DNA of 36,895 nt from Pyrinomonadaceae bacterium (GTDB taxonomy: Bacteria > Acidobacteriota > Blastocatellia > Pyrinomonadales > Pyrinomonadaceae): assembly GCA_035630035.1 (NCBI GenBank), contig DASQLL010000055.1, forward strand, positions 1-36,895, in the 5' to 3' direction. The notes under the pieces were generated by a model. It was not told the origin of the DNA. It did no database searches and saw only the letters and a list, made by a program, of their open reading frames with translations. Numbering within the stretch: the first letter of the stretch is position 1; the number at the start of each line of letters is the position of its first letter. A program made the translations under genes and the position numbers. This document shows positions 3,834 to 36,895 of the stretch, in pieces.

Positions 3834-4622
3834 TTATAAGAACTCGCGCCTGAGTGGTTCTTCAAAGACGGCGACGGCTTCCCCTTGATGCGCCGCGGTG
3901 TCGCGGGCGACGTTGAGGTTCGCGGCCGCGTGGGGGTAGTCGGGCGCGGCGGCCAGGACGGCTTCGAGTTCCTCGACGGCCTCGGCCGCGCGCCCCTGTT
4001 GCAGTCGCGTCAATCCCAGGTGGTAGCGCGCGGGGACGTGCGTGGCGTCGAGCGCCAGCGCCCTCTCGAACAGTCGGGCTGCGCGCGCGAGGTCGTTGCG
4101 GAAGAAGTAGCCGACGCCGAGGGCGGTCGCCCCCTCCGCGTCGTCGGGCTCAAGGTGTTCGGCGGCGGCGGCGAACGCCTCCGCGGCCTCTTCGCACGAG
4201 CCCTCACTCATTAGCAGCAACCCGAGGTTGTGCCACGCCTCCCCGTCCGTCAGCTCAAGTTCGAGGTAGAGACGGTAGGCGGCAATCGCCTCGTCGGCGC
4301 GCCCCACGAGCTGGTAGAGCACGGCGAGGTTGCGGTACGACTTCGGGTACTCGGGGGCGACCTCGACCGCGCGCAGGTATGCGTCCCGCGCCTCCGTCAG
4401 ACGGCTCAGCACGAACAGCGCGTTGCCGAGGTTGTTGAGGACGATGGGGTTTTCCGGCTTCAAATGCAGCGCCCGCTTAAAGCGAGCGACGGCCTCTTCA
4501 TACGCTCCTACGGACAGGAGTTGACAGCCGTGCAGGTTCTCCGATAGCACGGCCTCCTCGCCGGCAAGAGAAGCGCCGGGACGCACCGGTGACGAAACTG
4601 TTTCAGGAGATGGCTTCTTCAT
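3834..4622 (-). CDS. Tetratricopeptide-repeat (TPR) protein, last gene on the operon strand
   Basis: 262 aa with serial TPR-like units (AYEEAVARFKRALHLKPENPIVLNNLGNA; ARDAYLRAVEVAPEYPKSYRNLAVLY; EAIAAYRLYLELELTDGEAWHNLG). It lies 21 nt downstream of the preceding gene. No clear SD. Confidence 0.8.
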   Translation of the reverse strand: MKKPSPETVSSPVRPGASLAGEEAVLSENLHGCQLLSVGAYEEAVARFKRALHLKPENPIVLNNLGNALFVLSRLTEARDAYLRAVEVAPEYPKSYRNLAVLYQLVGRADEAIAAYRLYLELELTDGEAWHNLGLLLMSEGSCEEAAEAFAAAAEHLEPDDAEGATALGVGYFFRNDLARAARLFERALALDATHVPARYHLGLTRLQQGRAAEAVEELEAVLAAAPDYPHAAANLNVARDTAAHQGEAVAVFEEPLRREFL

Positions 4623-4643
4623 CGCCGGAACGACAGGGGAGGT

Positions 4644-5039
4644 TCATCTACTCGCCCTGACCAGGTGGGAAAGCTCCCGGTCGTCAACGCCCTGTGTTAT
4701 CAAGTGGAGGCATTTTTCAATGGCGGCCCGAATTTCCCGGCGGTCCGCAGATTCGATTGTCGCCAGGATGTTATTCCAATCCCTCCGAATCACGACAAGG
4801 CGGTAGCTCCCCTGTGGGTCGGAATCAGGATACCACCCGAGGTCTAACAGGTGTCCCTCCGGGTTGAGAGCCCAGCGCTCGCCGTCGTTTCTCATGCTCT
4901 GAATCCACAAGAGACCTATGGTGTAAAACTGGTCGTTGACAATCCGACCGTCAAGTACGATTGGGTCTTCGTCTCCGAAATGGTTAATCATGACGGCCCA
5001 CCCACTAGGGATTTGTAACGGAACCAATGAACGGCTCAT
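4644..5039 (-). CDS. Small protein immediately downstream of effector 2; candidate cognate immunity protein
   Basis: 131 aa. The ATG lies 7 nt after the effector stop, with GAGGTGA overlapping that stop. Lower GC than the structural genes. No family recognised; the role is inferred from position only. Confidence 0.55.
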   Translation of the reverse strand: MSRSLVPLQIPSGWAVMINHFGDEDPIVLDGRIVNDQFYTIGLLWIQSMRNDGERWALNPEGHLLDLGWYPDSDPQGSYRLVVIRRDWNNILATIESADRREIRAAIEKCLHLITQGVDDRELSHLVRASR

Positions 5040-5046
5040 AGAATTT

Positions 5047-8000
5047 TCACCTCGTCAGACGCGGGTGTGAATGAATCTCCGGTGTGCCGCTGCCCACGTT
5101 CGTCATTTCGGCCCGGATTAAGAAGGCGTCCTTCCCTTTGTCGTAGCCGATCTGCTCGTTGAAGGTCTTAAACGCCCAGTACCCGTCAGCACCTCTCTCT
5201 ACAATGTCTCCCGTCAGGAAAGCATCTTTTTCAAGTCTCTCCACGTCGGCGGCGGTTAACGAGTATAGGAATTGCCCGTTACCTGTACCCTTCTCCTTCG
5301 TGCTCGACTCTCGCCGCTCATCTTCCGAGTTACCCCGCCAGTGTTTCGCGCCGGTGTAGTCGGCGGGCTTCGTGTGGTGGGCTTTCTTCAACAGCTCCGC
5401 GACCTTTTCCTTCAAGGTCGGTGTCGCTGTTGTCGTTGTCGTTGACTCGGTTAAGAGTTCTTCGATGTCGGTTGTCTTCCACCTCTTACCGTACGCCTCA
5501 ATCGCGTCCTTCAGCTCAACGAAGGCTTCTTCGAACCCCGGTATCTGATTCAGCTTCTTTGTCGGGTCCGTTCCGGTCTGGATGGCTTTGCCCTGAAGAG
5601 TTTTAGCCATGCTGCCGAGCCATTTGAGATCGTCTATCTGTCCCGTGCCCTGGGCTTCGGGATTCACCTTCATCATCTTACCGACGGCTCTCCCGATCTT
5701 GTTGGATAATAAATCCCGCTTCGACTCGAATTCCACCTTGGGCCGTGCGCCGGGAGTTACGATCAGCCTGTGCTGAGTCCCCATCATGGTGACCGGTTTT
5801 TCCGTAGGCCCGTCAGGCGTGGCCTCTTTACCCCCGCCTTTCTTTTCCGAGTCCGCGCCGCCCGGCCCCTTGAGGTCTTTATCTTCCGACTTCTTCCCGT
5901 CCTGAATGGCCTTCTTCTTGTAGTCCTCAACCTTCTTCCCGTCGGCGGTCGTGGCCTTGTCGTCAACGTCCTTCTTGCCGCCCTTGCCGCCGCCGGACTG
6001 GGTAGTTGACTTGGCGGCGGTCTGCTCGCCGAGTTCGCCGGGCTTGGCGTCGCCCTTGCTGCCGCCTGTGGGAACCTCTGCGTCTTTGGTGTTCTTCTCC
6101 TTCCACTCGCCCTTCTTGTCGCCCTCCTCCGCCGACTTCGACTTGACCTTGTCGTGGTAGAGGTCGGACATGAACTTGTCGGCGGAGAAGTCCACGGGCT
6201 TGAACTCGATGGCGGGCCACTGCTTCGAGCCGAAGACGTAGTCCACGGAGGCGACCATGCCGAAGCTGCCGCCGATGGGGTACTCCTTGTCGAAGAGCGG
6301 CCACGTCCACCTCTTATCCGAGAGGGGCGACCACCACGGCGTATCTATTTCGACGAAGAGTTCGCCGCTTAGACCGAGGAAGGGCTGCGCCGCGATCTCC
6401 AGGTCGCCGCGGATGAAGAACTCGCCCTTCTTGTCCTCGCCGGGCGCGCCCTTCTCGCGGTAGCCGATGGTGGGAGTGGCCTCGGCGTAAGCCTTGATGC
6501 CCGCGATGCCGCTCAGCCCCGCGCCGGCCTTGATGTCGTGGCCGAGGATTTCCAGCCCCACGCCCGCCTGTGCGGTCAGACGCAGGCCCGCAGCCGCCGA
6601 GATGTTGATGCTGCCGCTGATGCTGAAGTCCTTGTTCTCTTCCGGGTTGGTCGAGTACGTGCCCTCGACGACGATGTTGTAGAACTTGGCCGGGCCGAGC
6701 TTGGCGAAGGCGTCCATCCCGACGTTGGCGAAGATGAAGACGTTGCCGACGACGGGGATGCCGTAGGCGGCGCGCGCCTCGAACTTGAAGAGCGGCTTGA
6801 TGAAGTCCTTCTGCTCGAACAGCTCGAACTCTTTCTGCGGCGTGATCTTGCCGATGATGGTGACGAAGCCCTCCGGATCGACGATGACGTGCGCCGTCCC
6901 GTTGAGCCACTCGTTGAAGGCGAAGGTGAGGTCGCCCTCGCCGAAGACGACGTAACTCATGTTCTTCGGCTTCGGCGGGGCCTTCGTCGGCTTCTCGGCG
7001 GCCGGCCCCTTGTCTCCCTCCGCCGGGGGCGCTTTCTTCTCCTTTTGGAGCCGCGCGGCCTCGCCCTTCTCCATCAGCCGCAGCGTCACTTCGCCCGACA
7101 TCTTCTCGCTCTGGTAGCCGACCTTGCCCTCGCCCGTGATGGCGCTCCCGTCCCACGCCATGTCCACCCCGCCCGTGAAATTCCCCTTCTTCAGGGCCAG
7201 CTTCACGTTGCCCTGACCGGTGAAGAGTCCCTCCTTGTTGCGCGCCAGTTTGATCTCGCCCTCAGCCAGCCCCGTCACTACGACTTTGGCGTGTCCCTCA
7301 AACGAATCCACTTTCTCGTCAGTCACCTTCAGGGTGAATCCGCCGCTGAATGGCCCCAACCCGATGGTCGCGTTTTCCACGGAGAGGTGCAGATGACCGG
7401 CATCGATTTTGTTGTTTAGCGTCAACTTCGGTATGTTGATGCCGGCCATGCCGATCAGCACTGGGGCCTTCTCGATGTAGTCCTCAATCTTCGTACCGGA
7501 AAGCTTGGCCTCGGCGGCGAGGCCGACGTGGCCCGTGAGTTGATTCTTAGTGAGCTTGACGACGAGGCTCGGCCGAAGGCCGCCCTCGGCATCGCCGACG
7601 TTCGCGAAGAGCGGGTGGATTAGCGGGAGCGGCTGGGCGTTAACTTCGTGGAGGTTGTCCTTCGACTTTTTGACTTTGAGATCGCCCTCCGCGATCCCGC
7701 CGAAGCGCGCCCTGACGCTCACCTCCTTGCCCTTGTGCTCTTCGAGGAACTCCTTGATGGGTGAAGGCGGGTTGAAATCCTTCATACCCTTGAGTTCGAG
7801 CACGCCGGGCGCGGCATCGAGGGGCTTCCCGCTCGCCTTCTTCTTCGTATCCTTCGCCGGCGCGGGCCGGAGCGTGTCGCTCTCCTTGCGGCTGACGGTC
7901 GGCGACGGCTGCGCCGCCCCGGAAGCGCCGGGGGAGGTCTGCTGGACGACGTGCGTCAGCTCGTGCGCCATCAGCCGCGTGTCGTTCTCCGACTCGCCGC

Positions 8001-22886: not shown

Positions 22887-24222
22887 CTCCCTCGTCCTCC
22901 TTCCGATAGACCACGTGGAACCAGCTCTCGAACGTGCCGCCGGGGACGCCGTTGCCCGTCGGCAACAGGCCGCGCAGGAAGTTGCCGTCCACGGGGTTGC
23001 CGTGGCAGTCGAGAATGAAATCGCACTTGAGCCGGACGTACACGGTGTTGCCGACGATGGTCTCGCCGCGGCGGTCGGCGCGCAGCTCGCCGCGGCGGTC
23101 GCCGCGGTAGGCCGGTCGGATGTAGTCGGGATCGATAGTGAAGACGGCGCGGCAGTCGTCTTCAAGCGCGGGCGGGCTGTCGGCGTCGTAGGGCAGGAAC
23201 TCCACGTCGCGCTGGATGCCGCCGTACTCAACGACGAAGGTCAGTGGGCTGACGCCGGTCGCGTCGCCGTCGGCCTCGCGCAGCTTGCGGTCGAAGAGGA
23301 CTTCGAGCCGGCCGCCCATCCGTTCGTTCAACTCTTCGAGCGTCACCTCGCCGCCGTGCGGCCAGTTGACGTGGACGACGTGTGTGAGCAGGTCGGGCGG
23401 CGTCGGCAGGTAGCGACGCCCGCGGCGTCGGATGCGGAAGCCCGCCGAAGGGTCGTCCGTGTTGACCTCGATGTAGGCGAGCGGCACATACTCGCCGCAG
23501 GGGCAGACGGGCTCGATGCACGTCCCGCCGGGGCCGGGCAGTTCGTCGCCGCAGTCGTCGCGGCAGGGCGCTTCGGGGTCGCCGCCGGGGGTGCGCCAGC
23601 AATCCCCCTGCACGTCTTCGAGCTTGACGACGACGATTTCGGCGCGCTCGCGCACGCGGTTGGCCTCGACGCGCGCGGGGTCGCACGCGCCCTCGCTGTA
23701 GAGCGCAGGCACGCGCTCTATCTCGTCCTCCGTGTAGCGGAGCGCGAGCAGGAAAGGCTCGGCCAATACTTCGTCGCCGCCCGTGCCGCCTTCGCCCCCC
23801 GATGCTTCGCCGTGGCCCTCTGTGCCCTCGCCGTACGAGCGCGACTGTTGGCCGCCCTCGTCCTCTTCCGCCGCGCGGGGCGGCAGCGGCAGCTCGAAGG
23901 CCGTCGCCTGCTCGATGATCAGCTCGCGGCCGCAGCAGTCGAGCGCGACGCCCGGGTGCACGACGACCCAGCGGCGCGCGCACTCCGAGTCGGGGTTGCG
24001 CCGGTAGTCCGGGTGGTGCGTGACCTTGAGGCCACAGACGATGCCCCAGCCGTGGAGCAGGTGGTTGTGCAGGCGGTGGCGGCTCAGGAAGTAGGTCTGC
24101 TCGTCCTGAAAATCGCGCGCGGCCATGTACTTGCCTGTAAAGTAGCGGTTGCGCTCGGCGGCGATGTAGCCGCACTCGCCCTGCCCGCAACGGCAATCGT
24201 CCTCGTGCCCTTTTGAACGCAT
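22855..24222 (-). CDS. eCIS fibre-position protein, paralog 1 of 4: Cys-rich (455 aa)
   Basis: Start re-set to the ATG at 24222 (GGAGGA upstream, 17 nt after the previous stop). DDCRCGQGECG...RYFTGKYMAARDFQDEQTYFLSRHRLHNHLLHGWGIVCGLKV...HPGVALDCCGRELII. Many further Cys pairs. Confidence 0.7.
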   Translation of the reverse strand: MRSKGHEDDCRCGQGECGYIAAERNRYFTGKYMAARDFQDEQTYFLSRHRLHNHLLHGWGIVCGLKVTHHPDYRRNPDSECARRWVVVHPGVALDCCGRELIIEQATAFELPLPPRAAEEDEGGQQSRSYGEGTEGHGEASGGEGGTGGDEVLAEPFLLALRYTEDEIERVPALYSEGACDPARVEANRVRERAEIVVVKLEDVQGDCWRTPGGDPEAPCRDDCGDELPGPGGTCIEPVCPCGEYVPLAYIEVNTDDPSAGFRIRRRGRRYLPTPPDLLTHVVHVNWPHGGEVTLEELNERMGGRLEVLFDRKLREADGDATGVSPLTFVVEYGGIQRDVEFLPYDADSPPALEDDCRAVFTIDPDYIRPAYRGDRRGELRADRRGETIVGNTVYVRLKCDFILDCHGNPVDGNFLRGLLPTGNGVPGGTFESWFHVVYRKEDEGDGNDDADRAE

Positions 24223-26630: not shown

Positions 26631-26647
26631 GTCGAAAAGCCGAGTCG

Positions 26648-28672
26648 TTACAAGTTGACCGCGGGCACGACGACGATCTCGTGTTCGGCGACGCCGTAGA
26701 CGAGGCCGTCGGGGCCGACCTTCACCGCCTTGTCTCTCTCGTGCGGACGGCCGTCAACCGTGACGGCGAGGTAAGAGACCGAGACGACATCCTTCACGTC
26801 GAGGATGACGTTGAAGAGGTTCGTCGGGAAGAACTCGCGCCCGAAGTCCCACCCGGGCTTCGCGCCGCCCTGCGCGTCGGGACACTTGGAGGCGGGCTTG
26901 GAGTCGTCGTCGGACTGCTTGCGCCCGAGCGGGTCGAGGTACTCGTTGATGGCCGCGGCCACGTCGAGCGCGACCGTGTCGAAGGCCGCGTAGGGCTGCG
27001 CCGCGACCTGCGCCTCGACCTTGACGGCCTGATACTCCGGCCCTTTGACGTAAATCTCGGCCGTGAGCGGGCGGCGCTTGTCGAGGTACTGGCAGACGCG
27101 CCGCAGCAGGTCGGCCGAAGGCTTCGGCGCGGGGTCTTCGATGTCGGCCTCGGGGACGACGACGACGGTCACGGCGCCGGGGACTTCGACGCCGGGGTGA
27201 TCGGGGTGCATGAGCGAGATGGCCGTCGCCTTGCAGACCTCGCCCGCCTCGGCCGCGAGTGCCGCGAAGTCGTCGCCCGTGATGGCGCGGTCGCGGCTGC
27301 GCAGGAGCCGGGGCGCACGCTCCCTCAGCGTCTCGACCTTCTGCTCGTCGCGCCCGCCCGTCGCGGGACGCTCGTTCGTCACCTTCTCGACGCCGACGAG
27401 CGACGAGACGATTGACGTGACGAGCCCCGAGGGGACGTTACCCGCCCCTCCGCCGCCCGCAAGGTATTGTCGCGCGATGATGTCGACGCCCGCGGGTGGG
27501 ATGAGGCCGCGTGCCCCGTCGCCGAAGCGTATCTCGCCGGTCGTCGCGCTCAGCGTGTAGTGCCGGCTCTCGGGGCCGGAGGCGAGGAAGTCGTCCACGC
27601 GTTGCCAAGTCTGCGACTCGACGTTGTCCTGCTCGACGACGAGTTCGAGCGAGTCGGGCTGCACGGGCCTCTGCCGCAGTGTGAAGAACTGTTCGGGGGT
27701 GCCATCACTCTTGCCGGGGAAGCCGTTGCTCTTGCCGACGAACTCGTCGCGCACGGTCGAGAGGTTTTCGGCCTCGACCGTGTTGGGGCGTATGAAGTCC
27801 ACGACCGGGGGCTGACCCGCGGGGTAAGTGCCGGAGGCGAGGCGCACACGCAGCCAGTAGCGCGGCTCGGCCACCTTCTCTACAACGGTCGGCTCAACCT
27901 CCTTCGGCCCTTCGACCAAGATGTAGCCCTCGCGCGTGAAGGCGACGCTCTCGTCCTTGTAGACACTCAACCGCCGCCAGCGCGGTGCTTTGTCAGAGGG
28001 GAGGTACTCCCAGACGAGCGTGACGGGCGGGGCGGGGGCCTGCGCGACCTCTCGGCAACTGACGGGCCTGCCGGCCTGCGACGCCGGAGGTAGAAAGACG
28101 CGGAAGCGCATCTCCTGCGGGAAGGGGCGCGACGGCGGCGGGCGGGGCGGAGTGAAGCCGAGGTAGAGCGCGCTGCCTGACTGCGGGAGCCAGCCGAAGG
28201 GCGGGAAGGTCGTGCCGGGGGTGTTGTTCGCTTCGGTCAGCACGGTGAAGGCGGCGCCGTCGAAGACCTGCACGTCGGTGAGCGGAACTCTGATCAGGTC
28301 GAGCCCTTCACGCGTCTCGAAGACAACGGAGCTGCCTTCGGGCGACTGCGCCTGAATCTGCGCGCGGCGCGGGACGGACTCGACCGCCGCGCCGGCCACA
28401 GCCGTGAACGTCAGGTGCGCGGTGGCCGGCTGCGCGGGCTGTAGCTCCATGCCGAGCAGTTGCAGGAACTTGATGTAGTTGCGATCCGGCACGCGGTTCA
28501 TCTGGTAGAGCATCATCTCGGTGAGCCACGCGAAGAGCTGGACGAGCGTGATGCCTGGGTCGCTCTCGTTGAAGTCCGTCCACTGGGGCGTGTAGCGCGG
28601 GATGCGCAGCTCCGCCTCGCGCAGGAGGTCTTCAAACTTCCGTGTGTCGAGTTGTGGCGCTTCGAGTGGCAC
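26648..28672 (-). CDS. Baseplate J-like protein (gp6/gpJ; Cis11 position), 674 aa
   Basis: GTG start with GAGGAGG upstream. The N-terminus APQLDTRKFEDLLREAELRIPRYTPQWTDFNESDPGITLVQLFAWLTEMMLYQMNRVPDRNY is the characteristic putative-baseplate-assembly-protein opening. Confidence 0.88.
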   Translation of the reverse strand: MPLEAPQLDTRKFEDLLREAELRIPRYTPQWTDFNESDPGITLVQLFAWLTEMMLYQMNRVPDRNYIKFLQLLGMELQPAQPATAHLTFTAVAGAAVESVPRRAQIQAQSPEGSSVVFETREGLDLIRVPLTDVQVFDGAAFTVLTEANNTPGTTFPPFGWLPQSGSALYLGFTPPRPPPSRPFPQEMRFRVFLPPASQAGRPVSCREVAQAPAPPVTLVWEYLPSDKAPRWRRLSVYKDESVAFTREGYILVEGPKEVEPTVVEKVAEPRYWLRVRLASGTYPAGQPPVVDFIRPNTVEAENLSTVRDEFVGKSNGFPGKSDGTPEQFFTLRQRPVQPDSLELVVEQDNVESQTWQRVDDFLASGPESRHYTLSATTGEIRFGDGARGLIPPAGVDIIARQYLAGGGGAGNVPSGLVTSIVSSLVGVEKVTNERPATGGRDEQKVETLRERAPRLLRSRDRAITGDDFAALAAEAGEVCKATAISLMHPDHPGVEVPGAVTVVVVPEADIEDPAPKPSADLLRRVCQYLDKRRPLTAEIYVKGPEYQAVKVEAQVAAQPYAAFDTVALDVAAAINEYLDPLGRKQSDDDSKPASKCPDAQGGAKPGWDFGREFFPTNLFNVILDVKDVVSVSYLAVTVDGRPHERDKAVKVGPDGLVYGVAEHEIVVVPAVNL

Positions 28673-28685
28673 GCTTGCGGCCTCC

Positions 28686-29084
28686 TCAGCCGGCTCCCTC
28701 GTTGATGAAGAAGGGGTAGACGAGATTGTAGAAGGCGTTGTTGGAGCGGACGCGGTAATCGACCCGGATGAGCATGTAGTTGCGCGCCTCCGGTTCGGTC
28801 TCGACGCGCACGTCCGTCACGTCGATCCGCGGCTCCCAGCGGACGAGCGCCTCGCGCACGCGCGTCTGCACGAGCCCGCGCAACGCCGCCGTGTTCGGCT
28901 CGAAGACGAGGTCGTGGATGCCGCAGCCGAAGTCGGGGCGCATCTGTCGTTCGCCGGGCGCGGTGCTCATGATGAGCCAGATGCTCTGGCGTATCTTCTC
29001 CTCGCCGCCCGAGAACGAGAGTCGGCCGCCCGGCCCGGGCCTGACGGGGAAGCTCCAACCCCGCCCAATGAAATCTCGCTCCAT
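28686..29084 (-). CDS. GPW/gp25-family baseplate wedge protein (Cis9 position)
   Basis: 132 aa. FIGRGWSFPV...EEKIRQSIWLIMSTAPGERQMRPDFGCGIHDLVFEP is the classic gp25 motif. GAGAGGAG SD. Confidence 0.9.
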   Translation of the reverse strand: MERDFIGRGWSFPVRPGPGGRLSFSGGEEKIRQSIWLIMSTAPGERQMRPDFGCGIHDLVFEPNTAALRGLVQTRVREALVRWEPRIDVTDVRVETEPEARNYMLIRVDYRVRSNNAFYNLVYPFFINEGAG

Positions 29085-29121
29085 CCGCCGTCCGCTCCTC
29101 TCATCCGCTTCCGCGCCGACT

Positions 29122-29508
29122 TCAGCCGATCATCACCGTGCCCGTCGCGACGACGGTTCCGACGGGGAGGTCTACCGGGTCGTTGCAGGTCAGCGCGGTG
29201 TCGCCGTTGCGCGCCGCCGCCTTGTTGTTGATAAAGACGGTGGCGCTGCCGGTGCTGATCTGCGCCCTGTTCTTGGGCGGGTTGACGAACGAGCCGCCCT
29301 GCGGGATGTGCGGCGGTGTGTTCGTCGCCGTGCTGTTGAGCGTCGCCGCCGGCCGCGACTCAATATTCACGTCGCTGCTCAGGGAGCCGTCGATGATGCC
29401 GCTGAACGGGTGCGGGACGGGGATGGGCGAAGAAGGCCCGGGCGGCTGAATCAGGTGTGTGTCAGTCGCCGTCACGCGGTCGCCCTGCTTGGCTGCGGGT
29501 TGCCCCAT
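29122..29508 (-). CDS. PAAR-like spike-tip protein (Cis10 position)
   Basis: 128 aa. GDRVTATDTHL...TVFINNKAAARNGDTALTCNDP fits PAAR-type repeats. GAGGAGG SD. It lies directly downstream of the spike gene. Confidence 0.8.
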   Translation of the reverse strand: MGQPAAKQGDRVTATDTHLIQPPGPSSPIPVPHPFSGIIDGSLSSDVNIESRPAATLNSTATNTPPHIPQGGSFVNPPKNRAQISTGSATVFINNKAAARNGDTALTCNDPVDLPVGTVVATGTVMIG

Positions 29509-29521
29509 CGTCGTCGCCTCC

Positions 29522-30106
29522 TCAGTTGATGTTGACGGTCGCGCCCTTGATCGTCATCGTCCCCGACGCCTGGAGCGTCATGTTGCCGCTGGCCTTGATC
29601 TCGACGGTCGTCGCGTCCACCTTGACCGTCCCGCTCCCGGCCTTCACCTCCACGTCGCCAGAGTCGCAGGTGACTTGAATCTTCTGGTTGGCGCTGTCGA
29701 GGACGACCTTGCGCTTGCCGTCGCTCGCGATGATCTCGATCTTCTCCTTGCCCTGCGTGTCGTCGAAGATGAGCAGGTGCGCGCTGCGCGACTTGATGAC
29801 GCGGATATCGTTCTTCGCGGACTGCACGCCCTCGTCGGGCGGCGTGTCGGTCTGGCTCCACAGCGAGCCGAGGACGTAGGGGCGGCGCACGTCGCCCAGC
29901 TCGAAGGCGACCAGCACCTCGTCGCCGACCTCGGGGCGGAAGAACTGCCCGCGATCTTTGCCCGCCATCGGCGTGACGAGCCGCGCCCAGTCGCTCTCCT
30001 GGTCGGCGAGCGTGGGGTACTTCACCTTGACGCGCCCGAGCTTCTCCGGGTCATTGAGGTCGGTCACGAGGCCGATGATGATGCCGTTGACCTGCTGTCC
30101 GCCCAT
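29522..30106 (-). CDS. gpV/gp5-like baseplate spike protein (OB-fold, VgrG-like; Cis8 position)
   Basis: 194 aa. GLVTDLNDPEKLGRVKVKYPTLADQESDWARLVTPMAGKDRGQFFRPEVGDEVLVAFELGDVRRPYVLGSLW is the Phage_base_V / VgrG OB-fold signature, followed by a beta-helical tail (VTCDSGDVEVKAGSGTVKVDATTVEIKASG). Confidence 0.9.
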   Translation of the reverse strand: MGGQQVNGIIIGLVTDLNDPEKLGRVKVKYPTLADQESDWARLVTPMAGKDRGQFFRPEVGDEVLVAFELGDVRRPYVLGSLWSQTDTPPDEGVQSAKNDIRVIKSRSAHLLIFDDTQGKEKIEIIASDGKRKVVLDSANQKIQVTCDSGDVEVKAGSGTVKVDATTVEIKASGNMTLQASGTMTIKGATVNIN

Positions 30107-30122
30107 TGCGTCCTCACCCCCT

Positions 30123-31262
30123 TTAAAGTTCCTCGCGGCGACACTCGAACTGCGTGGTGTAGCCGGCGTCGGTGATGGAGTGTGTCGTGCCCGTCAGGAA
30201 GTAGCGTCCGCTGAAGCGGTCGCCCATGCCGTCGATCATGACGACGCCCCCGGCGCGCAGGTCGGGCAGGCCGACGACCGTGCCGCGCCCCTTAAGCATC
30301 TCCTTGGCAATCTGTTCGAGCGTCTCGACGGCGAGCTTCTTGGCCTCGTTGAGGCTGTTCACGGGGCGGTCGGCGATGATCTCCTCACGGTCGCCGAACG
30401 ACTGCTCGACGGCCCCCTGCCGCCCCTTCGACCCGACGCCCTTCGTCCGCAGCTCCTTGCGCGTGGCCGTGTACTTAATCCGCTCCTTCTTCTTGTTGTC
30501 CCAGCCGAAGACCGTCACCTTGCCGACCTGCATGGCCGTCGAAAGTTCGGGTTGGAACTCGACGAGCGATTTGCCGAAGGAGAGCTGGTAGGTGACGCGC
30601 TTGACGCCGTCCGACTTGCCGAAGTAGAGCTTGCTCTCGCCCGCCGTGTCGTTCTCCGAAGACTCCTTGACGAAGATGTCGTAGCCGACGCGGCGCGCGC
30701 GCTCCATCAGGAAGATGATGTCGTACTTGTTGTCCTGGAGGACGTAGTCGTAGCGCTCCTCCTTCTCGAGCGGGTTGGTCTCGACCGTGACGCCGAGCTT
30801 CTCCTTGAGCCGCTTACCGACCTCCTGAGCGATGCTGCTGTCGGTCTGCCTGACGTAGGTGTGCGACTCCTGCTTCGTGCGCATGCGGTGGATCAGGTTG
30901 AGCCCGCTGATGGCGAGCGTCGGCTGCCCCGTCGCCGGGAAGTTCGGGCGCAGCGACGTGATCTCGCCCTTAATCATCAGCCGGAGCTTGTCCTTGCCGA
31001 AGTAGCCCATCCAGAGTTCGATCTCCTTGCCGGGGTCGAAGATGGTGTCGTCGATGTACTTGAAGGAGCGCTTCTCGGCGTCCCAGTTGTTGATGGTGAT
31101 CTCGAACGAGTCCACCTCCTGCAAGCTGTCTTTGTAGCTGACCTGGACGATGTCGCGCACGACGTCCTTGTCGAGCAGGCGGCCGCGCAGCTTCACCTCG
31201 AAGGCGGGAACGTAGAACTCCTGCCCCTGATAGATCGGGATGGCTGTCGTGTCGGTGCTCAT
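30123..31262 (-). CDS. Phage late control gene D-like hub protein (gp27-like), 379 aa
   Basis: Start re-set to the ATG at 31262, which overlaps the LysM gene stop as ATGA. The overall layout and the C-terminal SGRYFLTGTTHSITDAGYTTQFECRRE resemble gpD-family ends. Confidence 0.8.
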   Translation of the reverse strand: MSTDTTAIPIYQGQEFYVPAFEVKLRGRLLDKDVVRDIVQVSYKDSLQEVDSFEITINNWDAEKRSFKYIDDTIFDPGKEIELWMGYFGKDKLRLMIKGEITSLRPNFPATGQPTLAISGLNLIHRMRTKQESHTYVRQTDSSIAQEVGKRLKEKLGVTVETNPLEKEERYDYVLQDNKYDIIFLMERARRVGYDIFVKESSENDTAGESKLYFGKSDGVKRVTYQLSFGKSLVEFQPELSTAMQVGKVTVFGWDNKKKERIKYTATRKELRTKGVGSKGRQGAVEQSFGDREEIIADRPVNSLNEAKKLAVETLEQIAKEMLKGRGTVVGLPDLRAGGVVMIDGMGDRFSGRYFLTGTTHSITDAGYTTQFECRREEL

Positions 31263-31984: not shown

Positions 31985-31993
31985 CCCCGCACC

Positions 31994-32191
31994 TCACTCC
32001 CCGACGCGCGCCGGCGGGGCCGCCCCGCGCCTGAGCGTCGTCGCCTCGCGCGACTTGCGCGCCTCGCGCTGCTTGCCTTCGAGCCGGCCGAGCACGATCT
32101 GCACGAGCTTTTCGATCTGCGCCTGCGTGAGCGGCAGCTCGCCCTCCACGACCGCGACCTCCTCAGTTAGCTCCTCGATGTGCACGGGCAT
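31994..32191 (-). CDS. Small 65-aa protein at the Cis6 position (unknown function)
   Basis: ATG at 32191 with GAGGAG upstream, 14 nt after the tube-2 stop and 9 nt before the LysM gene. MPVHIEELTEEVAVVEGELPLTQAQIEKLVQIVLGRLEGKQRE. The longer ORF-track version overlaps the tube gene and is rejected. Confidence 0.6.
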   Translation of the reverse strand: MPVHIEELTEEVAVVEGELPLTQAQIEKLVQIVLGRLEGKQREARKSREATTLRRGAAPPARVGE

Positions 32192-32205
32192 ATCCGGTTC
32201 GCTCC

Positions 32206-32646
32206 TCACTTCGTGCGTGTGAGCCCGCGGTGGCAGAGCTCGACCGTCTCGACGGCGACGCTGTTCTGCATCGCGTTCAGGTCGGGGCCGAGCCACTTGC
32301 AGGGGAAGGCGTCGCTGAACTGCCACTCCATCACGGCCGTCCCGCCCGACGGGTCGCGCACGGTGATGCTGCCGCTGCGCAGCAAAGTCAGCCCCTGTGT
32401 CAACAGCCAGTACCAGTCCCACATGGCCCTGTCCACGATGCCGCGCTTGAGCACGATGTTGGTCTGCTTGGTGCGCGTCGGGAACTTGAGGACGTGCGTG
32501 TTGAGTCCGCCCTCGTTATAGTCCTGCACCTCGGTTTCGAGTTGCAGCCCCGTGCAGTCGCTGAAGCCGGCGACCGGCATCGCCTCCAGCGTGACCTCGA
32601 AGCGGAAGGCGAGGAAGGGATCCTGGCGGTCTCCGGTCTTAGGCAT
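32206..32646 (-). CDS. Phage-tail tube protein, copy 2 (T4 gp19-like; Cis1/Cis5-type)
   Basis: 146 aa. DPFLAFRFEVTLEAMPVAGFSDCTGLQLETEVQDYNEGG is the conserved tube-protein opening. Confidence 0.9.
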   Translation of the reverse strand: MPKTGDRQDPFLAFRFEVTLEAMPVAGFSDCTGLQLETEVQDYNEGGLNTHVLKFPTRTKQTNIVLKRGIVDRAMWDWYWLLTQGLTLLRSGSITVRDPSGGTAVMEWQFSDAFPCKWLGPDLNAMQNSVAVETVELCHRGLTRTK

Positions 32647-34546
32647 TGATGGCCCCCGCCGTCTCGAAGAACTCCGCGCGTCCTTCGGTCTTACCGATGC
32701 GAACGATGACGAACTCAGCCGGCCACGGCGGCAGCAGCCCGATCTCGCAGATCATCCGCCCCTGATCGGTCTCGGAGGATGGGTTGGTTGTCTCGTCGCA
32801 GCGCACGGAGAAAGCCTCCTCGGCTGTCGCGCCGTCGAGCATGCCACGCAGCCAGAGCCCCTGGAGGAAGTTGCGCGCGACGCGGTCGAGCTCGCGCCAG
32901 AGGTTCTGGTTGTTCGGCTCGAAGACCGTCCACTGTGTCTGCTCGTCGAGCGCCTCCTCGATCATCGTGACGAGGCGGCGCACGTTGACGTATCGCCAGG
33001 CGGGGTCTTCGCTCAGTGTGCGCGCGCCTGCCACGCGGATGCCGCGCCTGGGGTAGTCGCGCAGGACGTTGACGCCTCGCTCGTTCAGGTCGCCGTGCGC
33101 GATGTCGTCGAGCGCGACGCGCACATCCTTCGCCGCCTCAAGCTCCTCGTTGGCGGGCGGCTTGTGGACGCCGACCCGGCGGTCGCCGCGCGCGTAGACG
33201 CCCGCGACGTGGCCCGAGGGCGGGACGGCGCGCAGGAGCCCCTCGATGCCGAGCGGATCCGGCACGAGCAGCCAGGGGAAGTAGAGCGCCGCGTACTTCA
33301 GGCCGTCGCCCGAGAGTCTTTGCAAGCGCCAGTCCACGACGGTCTCGGTCGTCAACCGCGTGGGCGGCGTGTCGAGGACGGCGAAGCGATCCTTGAGCTT
33401 CAGGCAGTGCGAGACGAGCGCCGACTGTAGTTGCGAAATTTCGTCCTCGTCGAAGCCGCGCGGGAACTCGGCCGGCTCTTCGGTTCGGGCCGGCACTCCG
33501 GTCTCCGGGTCGGGCTCGCCGCACCTGGCCGGCAAGGGCTCCGGGCCGGGTCCGTCTGAGTCCGGAGGCTCGGGTTTGGCGGCCGGCTCGCAGAAGTCCG
33601 AAGGCGTCAGGTTCGGGTCGAGCTTGGAGCAATCGAGCGGCGGCTCTTTCGGCTTCCGCGGCGAGATGAGAGCCTTCGGCATGATGTCGGGCATCGCGAC
33701 GATGCTGATCTCGTCAACCGTTTCGAGCGCCGCGAGCCCCCACGCCTGCACGACCGGCGAGCCCTCACCGCTGAAGTGTTTGGACGTGAGCGACGCGATG
33801 CCGTCGCGCCCGCAGTTAAGGTGGCCGCTGCCGCCGCGCAGGTTCGGCGCGTCCGGGTCGGGCGTGTTCTTCTGCGAGCGCTCTAGCGGGAGCAGGTCGG
33901 CGGCGCGCACGAGGCGCGAGCCGCCGCCGCGCACGCGCGCATGTTCGTCGGCCGCGGGCGAGCCCGCGCGCTTTTTCGCCCTGCCGGGGCAGGAGTCATC
34001 GTCCCTCTCGCCGTTGATCAACTTGCAGACATAGCGCGTGTCGCAGGGGTTCATCGAGAGGTCGCGCCAGATTTCGCGCACGTTGCCGAGTTGGAGCGTG
34101 AGCGTGAACCGGTCGCGCGCGGTGTGCACCAGCGAGAACGTGATGCGGTTGCCGGCCGCGCCGGGGTTCGCGTAGACGTGGTGCTGGCCGTCACTGCTGG
34201 TGATGTTGGTGATGGCCGTGAGCCTCAGGGCCGGCTGCTTCGTCTCGTCCAGCAGCACGAAGAAGGCCGGGCGCGCGATGTCGGGGTCGGCCACGCGGAC
34301 GACCCAGCAGGTCGCGCCGCCATTGGCGAAGAAGCCCTCGACCGCGTAGGCCAGGTAGCCGTGCTCGATGTGCTCGCCGAAGATGGAGGCGAACTGCGTC
34401 ATGCTCTCGATGCGGACGGGCGTGTGCAGCGGGCCGGCGGCGGCAATGCCGATGAAGCCCGCCACATCCGTCCGCAGCGGCCTGAGTGCGGGGACGCGCG
34501 TGTCCGGCCACTCGAAGTAGACTCCTGGTGTGCGGTAGGCCAGCAT
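32639..34546 (-). CDS. Contractile tail sheath protein, copy 2 (635 aa) with a Pro/Cys-rich insertion
   Basis: Start re-set to the ATG at 34546 (AAGGAG upstream); the ORF-track extension overlaps tube 1. MLAYRTPGVYFEW is a sheath N-terminus. The C-terminal PPWPAEFVIVRIGK matches sheath 1 (APVKPAEFVIFRISQK). Confidence 0.9.
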   Translation of the reverse strand: MLAYRTPGVYFEWPDTRVPALRPLRTDVAGFIGIAAAGPLHTPVRIESMTQFASIFGEHIEHGYLAYAVEGFFANGGATCWVVRVADPDIARPAFFVLLDETKQPALRLTAITNITSSDGQHHVYANPGAAGNRITFSLVHTARDRFTLTLQLGNVREIWRDLSMNPCDTRYVCKLINGERDDDSCPGRAKKRAGSPAADEHARVRGGGSRLVRAADLLPLERSQKNTPDPDAPNLRGGSGHLNCGRDGIASLTSKHFSGEGSPVVQAWGLAALETVDEISIVAMPDIMPKALISPRKPKEPPLDCSKLDPNLTPSDFCEPAAKPEPPDSDGPGPEPLPARCGEPDPETGVPARTEEPAEFPRGFDEDEISQLQSALVSHCLKLKDRFAVLDTPPTRLTTETVVDWRLQRLSGDGLKYAALYFPWLLVPDPLGIEGLLRAVPPSGHVAGVYARGDRRVGVHKPPANEELEAAKDVRVALDDIAHGDLNERGVNVLRDYPRRGIRVAGARTLSEDPAWRYVNVRRLVTMIEEALDEQTQWTVFEPNNQNLWRELDRVARNFLQGLWLRGMLDGATAEEAFSVRCDETTNPSSETDQGRMICEIGLLPPWPAEFVIVRIGKTEGRAEFFETAGAINA

Positions 34547-34602
34547 GAAAGCGTAGCTCCTTGCGCCCCGCCGACACGCGGGCAGGGGCGCGCTGCGGGG
34601 CT

Positions 34603-35037
34603 TCAGGTCATCTCGATGCCTTCGCAGACGAGCTCCAGCGTCTCGATGGCGACCTCGTTGGTCTTGGCGTTGAAGGCCGGCCCTTCCCACTTGCGCGGCC
34701 ACGCCTCGCGGAACGTCCAGCGCAGAGCTTCGGTGCGCGCCTCGTTCTTGAGGACGACGGCTCCGTCGCGGCGCTCGGTCTTGCCGTCAAGCACGGTCTT
34801 GCGCCACAGCCAGAGGTCGTGGTTGTCGGTGAAGCCGCGCTTCAGAGTGATGTTGCCGAACTTCTTCAGGCCGGGCAGCTTCTTGACGGTGATGTCGAGG
34901 TCGCCGGTACGGTACTCGATAGCGTCGGTCTCGGTGTTGAGGCCGGTGCACTCGGTGAAACCGGCGACGGGGATGCCGTCAATCTCGACGGTAAAGTTGA
35001 AGGCCGAATAAGGATCTTCGCGGTCTCCCGTAGGCAT
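34603..35037 (-). CDS. Phage-tail tube protein, copy 1 (Cis1-type)
   Basis: 144 aa. DPYSAFNFTVEIDGIPVAGFTECTGLNTETDAIEYRTG. GGAGGTGA SD. Confidence 0.92.
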   Translation of the reverse strand: MPTGDREDPYSAFNFTVEIDGIPVAGFTECTGLNTETDAIEYRTGDLDITVKKLPGLKKFGNITLKRGFTDNHDLWLWRKTVLDGKTERRDGAVVLKNEARTEALRWTFREAWPRKWEGPAFNAKTNEVAIETLELVCEGIEMT

Positions 35038-35054
35038 TTCTCACCTCCGCTTTT

Positions 35055-36647
35055 CTACTGTTGCGCCTCAATCGTCTTCTGACTGATGCGGAAGATAACG
35101 AACTCGGCGGGCTTCACCGGCGCGATGCCGATGTAGCAGATGAGCCGGCCGTTATCTATGTCGTCCTGCGTCATCGTCGTCCGGTCGCACTTGACGAAGA
35201 ACGCCTCCTCCTGCGTCAGCCCCATCAGCGCGCCGCTGCGCCAGACGCTAAGGAGGAAGTTCGAGATGCTACGCACCACTCTCGCCCACAACGCGGAGTC
35301 GTTCGGCTCGAAGACGACCCACTGCGTGCCCTCGTCAATTGACTCCTCGACGAAGAGGAAGAGCCGCCGGACGTTGACGTACTTCCACTCGCCGTTCGAC
35401 GACATCGTGCGCGCCCCCCAGAGCCGGATGCCGCGGCCGTCCGGGCGGAAGTCGCGGAAGCAGTTGACGCCGCGTGGATTGAGCACGTCCTGCGTGCCCT
35501 TGGGCACGGGAAACTCCAGGTCGCGCACGCCGCGCCCGACTTCGTTGGCCGGCGCCTTGTGGACGCCGCGCGTCACGTCCGTGCGCGCGTAGATGCCCGC
35601 CACGATGCCCGTCGGCGGGATGAGCCGCTGGTCGTTAATCGAGGGGTCGTAGACCCAGACCCACGGGTAGTAGAAGGCACCGTAGGAGGTGTCGCGCGGC
35701 GGGTTGAGCGGTGTGGGATTGTCGATGTCGCTGCGCCCCTGCACGACCGAGCAGATGGCGAAGCGATCCTTGAGCGCCTCGCACTGGTCGAGCACCGCAT
35801 CCGTGACCGGGCTCATGTTGCTGCGAACCTCGTCGGGGGCCATCAGGAGCGAGACCTCGTCTATGTTGGCGACGGCAGCGAGCCCGCGGCCGCGGCCGAG
35901 CAGGTCGGCCGTGGTCGTGCCCGTGAATATCGAGTCGTCGTTGCCGTTGAAGTCGCCAGCGTTGATGGGCGCGCCGTCCGAGCCCGTCGAGCCGACCTGC
36001 ACGAAGTTGCCCGTCGGCGCGAGCGGGCCCGGGCCGGCGCCGCTCCATTCGACGCGAACGAGGCGCGAAGAGGAGTTGATGACGGTGATGATGTTGTTGC
36101 TCGCTCCGGGCTCCTCGGTCAGGTTGTCGTAGACTTCGAGTACGTCCGGGTTGCGACGGTCGGTGCTGACCAGGTCGGCGGGGAGGGTCGAGGTCGGGTC
36201 GATAATGCTGCCGGGGAAGTTCGGGGGCGGCGTCCTGTAGTAGAGGACGTAGACGCGGAACATGGGCCGCAGCGGTGTAGAGCGTGTGGCGACGTCCACC
36301 TTGATCATGACGCGGTTGCCCCACGCGCCGTGCCCGATGGCGAAGACGTTCATGTTGTCCACGCTGCCGGTGGTCAGTCCCGCACCGGCGCCGACGATGC
36401 GGGCGACGTAGCAGCGCTGGCCGCCGTTGTCGAAGAAGCCCTGCATGGCGTAGGCCAGGAAGGACTGGTCGATATAGCTGCCGTACCAGCGCTGGAATTG
36501 GAGAAAGCTTGTGATCAGCTTCGGATACAAAGGCCCGCGCTCGGTCGCGCCGAGCATGGCGGCGGTGCTGGTGCTGACGCCCTCAATTGGGACTGGGCCG
36601 GTACTGATCTCCTCCACGTAGACACCGGGCGAAAGATACTCAGGCAT
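35055..36647 (-). CDS. Contractile tail sheath protein, copy 1 (Cis2-type), 530 aa
   Basis: MPEYLSPGVYVEEISTGPVPIEGVSTSTAAMLG is the canonical sheath N-terminus. The C-terminal domain carries GVNCFRDFRPDGRGIRLWGARTMS. AAGGAG SD. Confidence 0.93.
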   Translation of the reverse strand: MPEYLSPGVYVEEISTGPVPIEGVSTSTAAMLGATERGPLYPKLITSFLQFQRWYGSYIDQSFLAYAMQGFFDNGGQRCYVARIVGAGAGLTTGSVDNMNVFAIGHGAWGNRVMIKVDVATRSTPLRPMFRVYVLYYRTPPPNFPGSIIDPTSTLPADLVSTDRRNPDVLEVYDNLTEEPGASNNIITVINSSSRLVRVEWSGAGPGPLAPTGNFVQVGSTGSDGAPINAGDFNGNDDSIFTGTTTADLLGRGRGLAAVANIDEVSLLMAPDEVRSNMSPVTDAVLDQCEALKDRFAICSVVQGRSDIDNPTPLNPPRDTSYGAFYYPWVWVYDPSINDQRLIPPTGIVAGIYARTDVTRGVHKAPANEVGRGVRDLEFPVPKGTQDVLNPRGVNCFRDFRPDGRGIRLWGARTMSSNGEWKYVNVRRLFLFVEESIDEGTQWVVFEPNDSALWARVVRSISNFLLSVWRSGALMGLTQEEAFFVKCDRTTMTQDDIDNGRLICYIGIAPVKPAEFVIFRISQKTIEAQQ

Positions 36648-36666
36648 GTCGAATCTCCTTACTCAG

Positions 36667-36895
36667 CTATGCGAACCGGAAGGTCGGCACGACCGCGGTT
36701 GCCCGCGGCCTCACCTGCTGATTAGTTTTCGTCTGCGAACGCCCGTCGGGCAGAGTCGCCGTTACTTGAACCGCCGCCGCCCCCTGATTCAAGCCGAAGT
36801 AGTAGAACCAGGAGCCGTCCGCGGCAACGGACGTCGAGCCGGGCCGCCCCTGCACCTGCACGGTCGCGCCGGGGATGACGCCGCCCGCGTTCGAG
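36667..36895 (-). CDS. 3' end of an upstream operon gene (5' part outside the window); carboxypeptidase-regulatory-like beta-sandwich C-terminus
   Basis: The frame is open to the window edge: SNAGGVIPGATVQVQGRPGSTSVAADGSWFYYFGLNQGAAAVQVTATLPDGRSQ resembles CarboxypepD_reg-type repeats. Its stop lies 19 nt before the sheath start. Confidence 0.4.
   Translation of the reverse strand, partial: SNAGGVIPGATVQVQGRPGSTSVAADGSWFYYFGLNQGAAAVQVTATLPDGRSQTKTNQQVRPRATAVVPTFRFA

Follow-up and report, generated by a model that had tools for sequence, protein, structure and literature searches.

A contractile injection system locus of a Pyrinomonadaceae bacterium predicted to carry polymorphic toxins with immunity genes

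What kind of machine is encoded by a long run of phage-tail-like genes in a Pyrinomonadaceae bacterium (phylum Acidobacteriota), and where would this machine act? We focused on a stretch of 36,895 nucleotides (nt) from this organism (GenBank assembly GCA_035630035.1, contig DASQLL010000055.1, positions 1 to 36,895 of the forward strand), referred to here as the window, which a preliminary description had taken for a complete-looking and unusual extracellular contractile injection system (eCIS) operon. Judging from the encoded proteins, the locus very probably specifies a contractile injection system (CIS) that resembles a phage tail, belongs to the Afp/PVC-like (eCIS) superfamily, and carries polymorphic toxins with immunity genes. 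We profiled the window proteins with Pfam and NCBIfam models, searched them against the sequences of the Protein Data Bank (PDB), scanned them for transmembrane (TM) helices by hydropathy, and, for selected domains, used AlphaFold2 (AF2) models and Foldseek. The loci used for comparison, L001 to L167, are stretches of other genomes with homologs of window genes.

The assignment to the superfamily is carried by the combination of what the window contains and what it lacks. A Cis15-type AAA+ ATPase and two cargo proteins with an eCIS_core domain (the current name of PF13699, formerly DUF4157, the name used here) share the operon with the tail, spike, and baseplate genes, and profile scans of the window detected no capsid, portal, terminase, TssJLM, or ClpV gene. 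The earlier view that the locus is of the eCIS type, and neither a prophage nor a canonical type VI secretion system (T6SS), is therefore upheld, as is the profile support for the ATPase and for DUF4157. This combination identifies the superfamily and not the mode of action; the word “extracellular” in the preliminary description is not borne out by the gene content, and the closest solved sheaths are those of membrane-bound or cytoplasmic systems. The machine genes outside the fiber position, listed in operon order, are the following.

35055 to 36647, minus strand: sheath 1 (Cis2-like), 530 amino acids (aa); Phage_sheath_1 and Phage_sheath_1C, best PDB matches 9EZM and 8BKY
34603 to 35037, minus strand: tube 1 (Cis1-like), 144 aa; Phage_T4_gp19, E 4.9e-44
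32639 to 34546, minus strand: sheath 2, 635 aa; Phage_sheath_1, Phage_sheath_1C, and Gp18_domIII_N
32206 to 32646, minus strand: tube 2 (Afp5 position), 146 aa; Phage_T4_gp19, E 1.4e-34
31994 to 32191, minus strand: conserved 65-aa protein in the Afp6/Cis6 position; 43 to 75% identical at the same position in L001 to L016
31259 to 31984, minus strand: tube initiator with LysM (Cis7-like), 241 aa; CIS_tube, E 1.1e-34; LysM, E 5.9e-6
30123 to 31262, minus strand: spike hub, gp27/gpD-like N-terminal part of VgrG (Cis8 N-terminal part), 379 aa; NCBIfam VgrG_rel, E 2e-36
29522 to 30106, minus strand: spike, gp5/gpV OB domain and beta-helix (Cis8 C-terminal part), 194 aa; Phage_base_V, E 1.1e-29
29122 to 29508, minus strand: PAAR tip, 128 aa; PAAR_motif, E 2.9e-9
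28686 to 29084, minus strand: gp25 sheath initiator (Cis9), 132 aa; GPW_gp25, E 1.8e-30
26648 to 28672, minus strand: Baseplate J (Cis11), 674 aa; Baseplate_J, E 1.7e-23
24240 to 26630, minus strand: Cis12, an N-terminal NHL propeller joined to a Tail_P2_I/TssG-like wedge protein, 796 aa; NHL, E 3.7e-7; TIGR02242, E 1e-16
14736 to 17117, minus strand: probable tape measure (Cis14 position), 793 aa, Ala/Leu-rich; CIS_TMP, E 9.4e-4, with position, size, and composition
12307 to 14736, minus strand: Cis15-type AAA+ ATPase, 809 aa; WHD PF22977, E 2.8e-45; AAA, E 8.6e-26

After trimming of over-extended starts of open reading frames (ORFs), we counted 23 complete genes between 36647 and 3834, all on the minus strand, with gaps of at most 89 nt and several overlaps of 1 to 34 nt; every long nonnested ORF of this interval lies on that strand. 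Together with a 24th gene cut by the window end, this agrees with the ∼24 co-oriented, packed genes reported before. The component names also stand, with Pfam or NCBIfam matches for both sheaths, both tubes, the LysM protein, the spike, PAAR, gp25, Baseplate J, the NHL-bearing Cis12, the AAA+ ATPase, and both DUF4157 proteins. For the hub, described earlier as gpD-like, no Pfam match was found, and its identity comes from VgrG_rel and from the spike-hub chains of Anabaena and of AlgoCIS, the system of Algoriphagus machipongonensis (7AEF; PMC8894135), whose hub is its best PDB match. The hub gene covers only positions 5 to 346 of the 547 in the VgrG_rel model and matches the N-terminal ∼345 residues of the AlgoCIS (7AEF_q, E 4.8e-21) and Anabaena (7B5H_AJ) chains. 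Because these matches stop at the N-terminal part of the model and of both chains, the split of hub and spike into two genes is, by alignment, real, in contrast to AlgoCIS, where the two form a single chain of ∼580 residues.

Some of the remaining machine genes were assigned from their context. Gene order suggests that sheath 2 is probably the baseplate-proximal sheath, and the 65-aa protein in the Afp6/Cis6 position had no Pfam (E up to 5), NCBIfam, or PDB match. Cis12 matched CIS12_fam with an E value of 1.6e-39, which is below the family cutoff, and it has NHL matches in the PDB and full-length orthologs in relatives. The Ala/Leu-rich 793-aa protein is probably the tape measure, as suggested by its position, size, and composition, and it has positional orthologs in L082, L084, L161, and L162. 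Relatives of the ATPase (33 to 63% identity) lie beside CIS genes, either the tape measure and Cis13 paralogs or the sheath and tube, in L081 to L084 and L091 to L098; the PDB matches shown for it were generic CDC48/VCP-type AAA ATPases, with no solved Cis15 structure among them.

Does the window contain the whole operon? Base 36895 falls inside the following conserved gene, whose stop codon lies 19 nt before the sheath start codon.

36667 to 36894, minus strand: 3′ end (last 75 codons) of a conserved gene with a CarboxypepD_reg domain, truncated by the window end; CarboxypepD_reg in the L002, L001, and L004 orthologs

This fragment is 53 to 67% identical to the gene directly 5′ of the sheath in L001 to L005. 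Because the window ends inside this gene and the cap gene (Pvc16_N/DUF4255, Afp16) lies further upstream in relatives, the operon is incomplete in the window, which holds its 3′ 33 kb. The operon can thus no longer be called complete-looking, and no DUF4255/Pvc16_N gene lies within the window. To see the missing side in relatives, we covered 6 to 10 kb 5′ of the sheath in five loci (L001, L002, L004, L009, and L016). The Pvc16_N cap gene is the second gene 5′ of the sheath in four of them (L001, L002, L004, and L016) and the first in L009, and the CarboxypepD_reg gene sits between cap gene and sheath in L001, L002, and L004. L016 has the same two-gene layout, but its intervening gene had no Pfam match. 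Regulators are encoded upstream in three of these relatives: L002 and L016 have a sigma-54 activator, and L004 has a BTAD protein with a histidine kinase. Among the scanned upstream ORFs, none matched a head, portal, or terminase gene; the preliminary description had named such genes as what would turn the locus into a phage, and as far as the relatives allow, they are not there.

These data bear on the reading of the locus as a defective myovirus prophage tail or an R-type tailocin acting by membrane depolarization, with the toxin genes as unrelated neighbors. All structural genes are homologs of phage tail genes, and the left flank has a tyrosine recombinase and an IS3 element, as this reading would have it. 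However, a Cis15-type AAA+ ATPase and DUF4157 cargo genes stand inside the operon, no holin or endolysin was found, and the upstream sides of the five relatives hold Pvc16_N and, in three, regulators instead of head genes; the arrangement as a stand-alone cluster is moreover conserved across phyla. We rejected the prophage or tailocin reading on gene content and on the upstream context of the relatives, and consider it extremely improbable.

Further observations were made on the upstream sides. The sigma-54 enhancer-binding protein genes occupy positions 5511 to 6947 of L002 and 6545 to 7975 of L016, both 5′ of the cluster. In L016, the interval from the activator gene to the cap gene contains a site with one mismatch to the −24/−12 pattern, TGGCAACCCGGTTGCA (8122 to 8137); it was the one good site of a sigma-54 promoter scan whose match counts were not above chance. 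Just 5′ of Pvc16_N, a coiled-coil protein of 270 to 350 aa is encoded in L001 (5539 to 6600), L002 (7539 to 8363), and L009 (7707 to 8687), and a similar gene lies upstream in L012 (7308 to 8171). The coiled-coil proteins 5′ of the cap gene matched no Pfam family above threshold and had no TM helix; they may be a candidate for an unrecognized CIS component.

Having placed the machine, we asked what it would deliver. Two large DUF4157 proteins follow the ATPase gene, each with a small gene directly 3′ of it.

9281 to 12307, minus strand: effector 1, 1,008 aa, with a low-complexity leader, DUF4157, TM helices, and a predicted C-terminal toxin (residues 891 to 1006); eCIS_core, E 2.2e-32
9024 to 9284, minus strand: putative immunity protein 1, 86 aa; overlaps the effector 1 stop by 4 nt; GC content at third codon positions (GC3) 0.53
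5047 to 8934, minus strand: effector 2, 1,295 aa, with a leader, DUF4157, a long linker, and a predicted C-terminal toxin (about the last 115 aa); eCIS_core, E 8e-25
4644 to 5039, minus strand: putative immunity protein 2, 131 aa; homologs 32 to 54% identical and directly 3′ of a toxin homolog in L163 to L165

Both DUF4157 effectors noted before are thus well supported (eCIS_core, E 2e-32 and 8e-25). Each has an intact HELTH motif (HExxH), at residue 231 in effector 1 and at residue 324 in effector 2, and they have a leader in common (residues 2 to 83 versus 3 to 78, 38% identity, E 5e-6). The same layout of a disordered leader, DUF4157, and a variable C-terminal domain, with cargo pairs that share a leader, is found in AlgoCIS, in which tube loading requires Alg15, an AAA+ protein, as well as the leader, and DUF4157 is dispensable (bioRxiv 10.64898/2026.05.27.728243). 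The two systems differ in that no immunity genes are described for the AlgoCIS cargos (PMC8894135; bioRxiv 10.64898/2026.05.27.728243).

The C termini of both effectors recur on other delivery proteins. Residues 891 to 1006 of effector 1 are 52 to 61% identical to the C termini of WXG100, VENN (CdiA-type), RHS, and DUF637 proteins and show an invariant E...D...DRK pattern. The C-terminal family of effector 2, of which a word-indexed search returned one match only, surfaced in an exhaustive search and comprises 56 representatives among 1.84 billion proteins. In nearly all full-length matches (∼170 to 1,455 aa), its toxin domain lies at or within ∼20 residues of the C terminus, and of the 33 members whose N termini were scanned, 8 start with DUF4157 and one each with LXG, PT-TG, and PAAR/prePAAR. 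Invariant or near-invariant residues of this domain (5050 to 5499, minus strand) are Y1193, K1197, H1198, R1207, Q1221, E1235, E1276, and H1288-S-H-P1291. The partner genes travel with these domains: homologs of the immunity proteins are located directly 3′ of toxin homologs in four unrelated loci (L163, L164, L165, and L167), the last of which, on a Ralstonia megaplasmid, has the homolog of immunity protein 1. A further homolog of immunity protein 1 (39% identity; L166, 4001 to 4240) is an orphan on the Streptomyces californicus plasmid NZ_CP070262, with no toxin homolog in the 8-kb stretch around it. These matches support the earlier proposal of two effector-immunity modules and suggest that both C termini are polymorphic-toxin modules common to CdiA, Rhs, type VII secretion system (T7SS), and T6SS proteins, with a predicted toxin activity.

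Composition sets the cassettes apart from the machine. GC3 is 0.85 to 0.95 in the machine genes, 0.47 in the effector 1 toxin (9281 to 9664), and 0.53 in immunity gene 1 (9024 to 9284), with 0.70 in the effector 2 toxin (5047 to 5574) and 0.64 in immunity gene 2 (4644 to 5039). Because GC3 breaks at the toxin/immunity cassettes, these are, by composition, foreign, a pattern that the swapping of C-terminal modules would produce, and they appear to have been acquired separately from the machine and exchanged horizontally. Given that the immunity genes travel with toxin modules found in CdiA, Rhs, T7SS, and T6SS proteins, and given the foreign GC3, the evidence points to bacterial targets.

The design of these effectors is not new. 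Polymorphic toxins of the DUF4157/PVC-metallopeptidase class start with an HExxH DUF4157 domain, which a very long linker joins to a C-terminal toxin of a kind also found in other secretion systems, and an immunity gene lies next to them (Zhang et al. 2012; PMC8213781). Fusions in which very long linkers connect DUF4157 to a toxin, at times with an immunity gene, have already been described (PMC8213781). The window differs in that its toxin C termini have no Pfam toxin family and that of effector 2 also has no PDB fold match; Pfam searches of effector subsegments and immunity proteins at E values up to 5 gave nothing usable, and a search of the effector 1 toxin against PDB sequences gave nothing informative. 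Between DUF4157 and its toxin, effector 1 has two or three strong TM helices (around residues 571 to 595 and 674 to 714; window 10160 to 10600, minus strand), which might form a module by which the C-terminal toxin is inserted into a membrane or translocated.

Where, then, would the machine fire? Sheath similarity gave a first indication. Among solved sheaths, sheath 1 is closest to that of the haloarchaeal membrane-bound T6SS-like CIS (9EZM, Cis2 of Halogeometricum borinquense; E 1.8e-133), followed by the cytoplasmic CIS of Streptomyces (8BKY, E 2.4e-108; 8BL4, E 1.1e-105). The sheaths of the thylakoid-anchored Anabaena CIS (E 4.6e-55), of PVC and Afp (E 1e-51 to 1e-43), and of AlgoCIS (E 7e-47) are far more distant.

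The second place of the Streptomyces sheaths raises the reading of a cytoplasmic CIS that fires inside its producer, in regulated cell death or development. The S. coelicolor CIS (8BKY; PMC10066040) has the same superfamily core set, and the absence of secretion signals, a lysis cassette, and a membrane anchor from the window would fit such a life, as would a DNA-binding-type domain on one of the baseplate paralogs described below, which would make sense inside a cell. However, immunity genes that travel with toxin modules of the CdiA, Rhs, T7SS, and T6SS types point to antagonism between cells, and the window encodes toxin-immunity cassettes and four fiber-type proteins, whereas the Streptomyces CIS acts in the cytoplasm and was assumed to be without tail fibers (PMC12923769). 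A cytoplasmic machine is thus, in our estimate, very unlikely.

The four fiber-type proteins stand between Cis12 and the tape measure candidate.

22855 to 24222, minus strand: Cis13-type paralog a, 455 aa, extended at its N terminus by a Cys-rich stretch; N-terminal domain of CIS13_fam, E 7.9e-25
20331 to 22886, minus strand: Cis13-type paralog b, 851 aa, which has PKD-like repeats and ends in a helix-hairpin-helix (HhH) domain; CIS13_fam, E 3e-9; PKD_6; HHH_5, E 2.3e-9
18595 to 20364, minus strand: Cis13-type paralog c, 589 aa; CIS13_fam, E 2.5e-5
17154 to 18563, minus strand: Cis13-type paralog d, 469 aa, with an N-terminal domain of the TssK-like/shoulder type; CIS13_fam, E 5e-10; AF2 and Foldseek

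An N-terminal domain of ∼100 aa is common to all four, confirming that the fiber-position genes are paralogous. Against NCBIfam CIS13_fam (NF053767), they score 24 to 88 bits, compared with a cutoff of 370 bits, and match only the N-terminal ∼90 to 140 model positions; by these profile matches, they have the N-terminal domain of the family and not its full architecture. The same domain also occurs in the haloarchaeal locus L073. Each paralog has its own positional ortholog in L161 and L162, which rules out a recent duplication of the four genes and places the duplication far back. Identities to L162 and L161, respectively, are 86% and 63% for paralog a, 59% and 52% for b, 70% and 43% for c, and 84% and 60% for d, compared with 85% and 67% for Baseplate_J. 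Paralogs a and d are thus conserved like core baseplate genes, and b and c are more variable. The positional orthologs of all four, together with the conservation of a and d, suggest fixed structural roles instead of interchangeable receptor binders.

For paralog d, we found 343 homologs with E values of at most 1e-5 in a metagenomic protein set, the best 120 of which, as listed, have no Pfam domain. Its AF2 model (mean pLDDT 70) scores best in the N-terminal half, and Foldseek aligned it with the ∼725-residue baseplate chain of the thylakoid-anchored CIS (tCIS) of Anabaena (7B5H AA to AC), with TssK (6N38, 5Y0E, and 5MWN), and with phage tail fibers. The Foldseek probabilities were 0.99 to 1.0 but the TM-scores were low, so that the match is confined to the N-terminal ∼210 to 250 residues. 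Such anchors have precedents: fibers with shoulder-like, TssK-like N-terminal anchor domains have been described for eCIS, with Tail_P2_I adaptors that resemble TssG and may hold up to four fibers, and 23% of fiber-containing loci have more than one fiber gene, with a maximum of five (PMC12923769). Like the multifiber eCIS with Tail_P2_I adaptors and eBAP3/TssK-like fibers (PMC12923769), the window has a Tail_P2_I/TIGR02242 wedge followed by several fiber genes; it differs in that all four paralogs have positional orthologs and that a and d are as conserved as the core baseplate. Searches of paralog a against PDB sequences gave nothing informative, and the same was true of the upstream CarboxypepD_reg protein.

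The C terminus of paralog b differs between orthologs in the number of PKD repeats and in the presence of the HhH domain, a type often associated with DNA binding. In the window, this domain (HHH_5, E 2.3e-9) spans residues 792 to 848 (20331 to 20510, minus strand); the L161 and L084 orthologs retain it, but the closest one, L162, does not have it. Cys-rich extensions precede the common domain in paralogs a (24130 to 24222, CRCGQGECG) and b (22790 to 22886, CDCGGGEETCCGLDC), both on the minus strand, and could be candidate metal-binding sites; paralogs c and d have no such extension.

The paralogs and the sheath together bear on a third reading, in which the CIS is membrane anchored, contact dependent, and T6SS-like, firing from inside the producer without release, as in H. 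borinquense. This species has the closest solved sheath (clade IIa, 9EZM), Cis11, Cis12, and Cis13-type baseplate proteins, and DUF4157 toxins with immunity genes 3′ of them; the function of its CIS is antagonism between cells, and Cis12 and Cis13 are the proposed membrane contacts (PMC11566945). The occurrence of the Cis13-type N-terminal domain in a haloarchaeal locus and the TssK-like fold of paralog d fit this reading, and toxin-immunity pairs would suit kin-protected contact killing. However, none of the structural proteins of the window, including Cis11, Cis12, and the four Cis13 paralogs, had a TM helix in the hydropathy scan (c has a marginal segment of hydropathy 1.7 at its C terminus), and effector 1 was the only multipass membrane protein found in the window. 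In Anabaena, the N terminus of Cis13 binds the baseplate and its C terminus decides where the machine is anchored (PMC8894136), but the C-terminal TM anchor helix of the Anabaena protein is not matched in the window paralogs.

The H. borinquense cluster also differs in gene content, with no cis6 or cis14, two cis11 genes, and a putative anchor with six TM helices, Hbor_38620, whereas the window has a tape measure candidate, a gene in the Cis6 position, one Cis11, four Cis13 paralogs, and no structural membrane protein. No TM segment that would indicate a multipass anchor of the Hbor_38620 type was present in the structural proteins of the window or in the genes just 5′ of the cap gene in relatives, although Hbor_38620 homology itself was not searched. 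Without TssJLM, an anchored machine would have to cross a diderm envelope with no known membrane complex, and the PKD-like repeats of paralog b suggest an external adhesin role. Taken together, we consider an anchored machine unlikely.

A released particle that attacks bacteria is the reading that we favor, if only by a modest degree of confidence, because the structural proteins have no TM helix and the PKD-like repeats of paralog b suit external adhesion. In the mechanism that we propose for the locus, the particle would assemble in the cytoplasm on its baseplate to a length set by the tape measure, and the AAA+ ATPase, by analogy with AlgoCIS, would load the two cargos via their N-terminal leaders. 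Four Cis13-type trimers would dock on the Tail_P2_I/Cis12 wedge, where the less conserved paralogs b and c, the former with its PKD-like repeats, would be the likeliest contacts to the target. Contraction of the sheath would then drive spike, PAAR tip, and cargo into a neighboring bacterium, and the immunity proteins would protect the producer and its kin.

Several points weigh against this picture. Its weakest link appears to be the extracellular step, because the characterized systems with the most similar sheaths are not free eCIS. Both the loading role of the AAA+ ATPase and the target-binding role of paralogs b and c are analogies. The profile scans found no Pvc16_N/DUF4255 (Afp16) cap gene in the window, which stops inside the operon. 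The protein in the tape measure position, whose earlier label is favored by position and composition, matches CIS_TMP below threshold (E 9e-4; 19 bits versus a cutoff of 27.8), over its C-terminal 48 aa only. As for the cargo, the effector 1 C terminus would be a PD-(D/E)xK nuclease on its invariant pattern only. The C terminus of effector 2 has a confident AF2 model (pLDDT 90.7) but no Pfam match, no PDB-sequence match, and no Foldseek match below an E value of 0.25; its predicted topology (a helix, then an antiparallel sheet) and its conserved His, Glu, Arg, and Lys residues gave rise to the tentative idea of a barnase/EndoU-like RNase.

A bolder reading, which we regard as improbable, takes this Acidobacteriota/Chloroflexota lineage for an antibacterial CIS with an unusual baseplate. 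Four distinct, fixed TssK-like trimers would sit on the NHL-bearing, TssG-like wedge, the machine would fire on contact from a diderm cell without TssJLM, and the HhH domain of paralog b would tether the machine to DNA. If this were true, the locus would have a heteromeric baseplate periphery, intermediate between phage receptor-binding proteins and the TssK-TssG-TssF wedge of the T6SS; contact firing from inside a diderm cell without TssJLM would be a new T6SS-like mode in bacteria, and the DNA bound by the HhH-tipped paralog would be the nucleoid or extracellular DNA.

How typical is the locus? In species-representative genomes, the sheath has 563 relatives, the best of which are from metagenome-assembled genomes of Acidobacteriota (74%), with 71% in Pyrinomonadaceae and Blastocatellia, followed at 44 to 70% by Chloroflexota, Deltaproteobacteria, Gemmatimonadota, Planctomycetes, Firmicutes, and many archaea. 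The near relatives examined have the gene order of the window (sheath, tube, sheath, tube, small protein, LysM, hub, spike, PAAR, gp25, J, NHL-Cis12), except for a missing PAAR match in L008 and a missing small-protein match in L012. The longer loci continue with Cis13-type paralogs, the tape measure candidate, the AAA ATPase, and DUF4157 effectors; all four paralogs are present in L161 and L162, and L082 and L084, which are shorter contigs, have those that fall within their length. Relatives thus have positional orthologs for every gene from the sheath to the AAA ATPase. The preliminary description had called the gene complement unusual, naming the split hub and spike, the NHL-bearing baseplate protein, and the four fiber-position genes. 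The split and the NHL protein are real, but neither they nor the four paralogs are unusual, since related loci of Acidobacteriota, Chloroflexota, and other phyla show all of them again in unchanged order. By its gene order, the locus is an ordinary member of a widespread and already catalogued lineage, with a typical architecture.

The cluster also differs from its surroundings in composition. Its GC content is 0.64 in L002 and 0.71 in L016, compared with 0.54 and 0.62, respectively, in the 6 to 7 kb upstream, and in the window it is 0.70, compared with ∼0.61 in the left flank. Because the GC content is about 10 points above that of the flanks in L002 and L016, and the left flank of the window is also lower, the GC step suggests that the cluster moves horizontally.

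At the operon's 3′ end lies a co-oriented neighbor without a visible link to the CIS.

3834 to 4622, minus strand: TPR protein, 262 aa; TPR families only

No tblastn match to this gene was found in the related loci listed, and its membership of the system is not supported. Beyond it, the left flank (234 to 3699) contains a tyrosine recombinase gene (234 to 1202, plus strand), a Dph6-like ATP pyrophosphatase gene (2188 to 2586, plus strand) that is truncated after ∼130 aa and abuts an IS3-family element, and the element itself (orfA, 3451 to 3699; orfB, 2537 to 3409; both minus strand). The left flank looks like a rearrangement boundary beside the operon's 3′ terminus. No inverted repeats were detected in it, and scans of the window and left flank for tRNA genes, Rfam families, and repeats were empty except for one 16-nt two-copy direct repeat that is probably due to chance.

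Each class of feature found here has been described before, and the locus leaves the current picture of CIS unchanged; the toxin-immunity analysis is a modest addition to the earlier account. With the two cargo C termini, the polymorphic-toxin repertoire gains unannotated families of predicted toxins and immunity proteins; for one C terminus, a confident predicted fold has no PDB counterpart. Given that we found no experimental work in the literature on an acidobacterial CIS or on a CIS of the locus's close relatives, a well-formed locus with two predicted toxin-immunity cassettes is a reasonable candidate for asking whether soil Acidobacteriota attack other bacteria with phage-tail-like particles.

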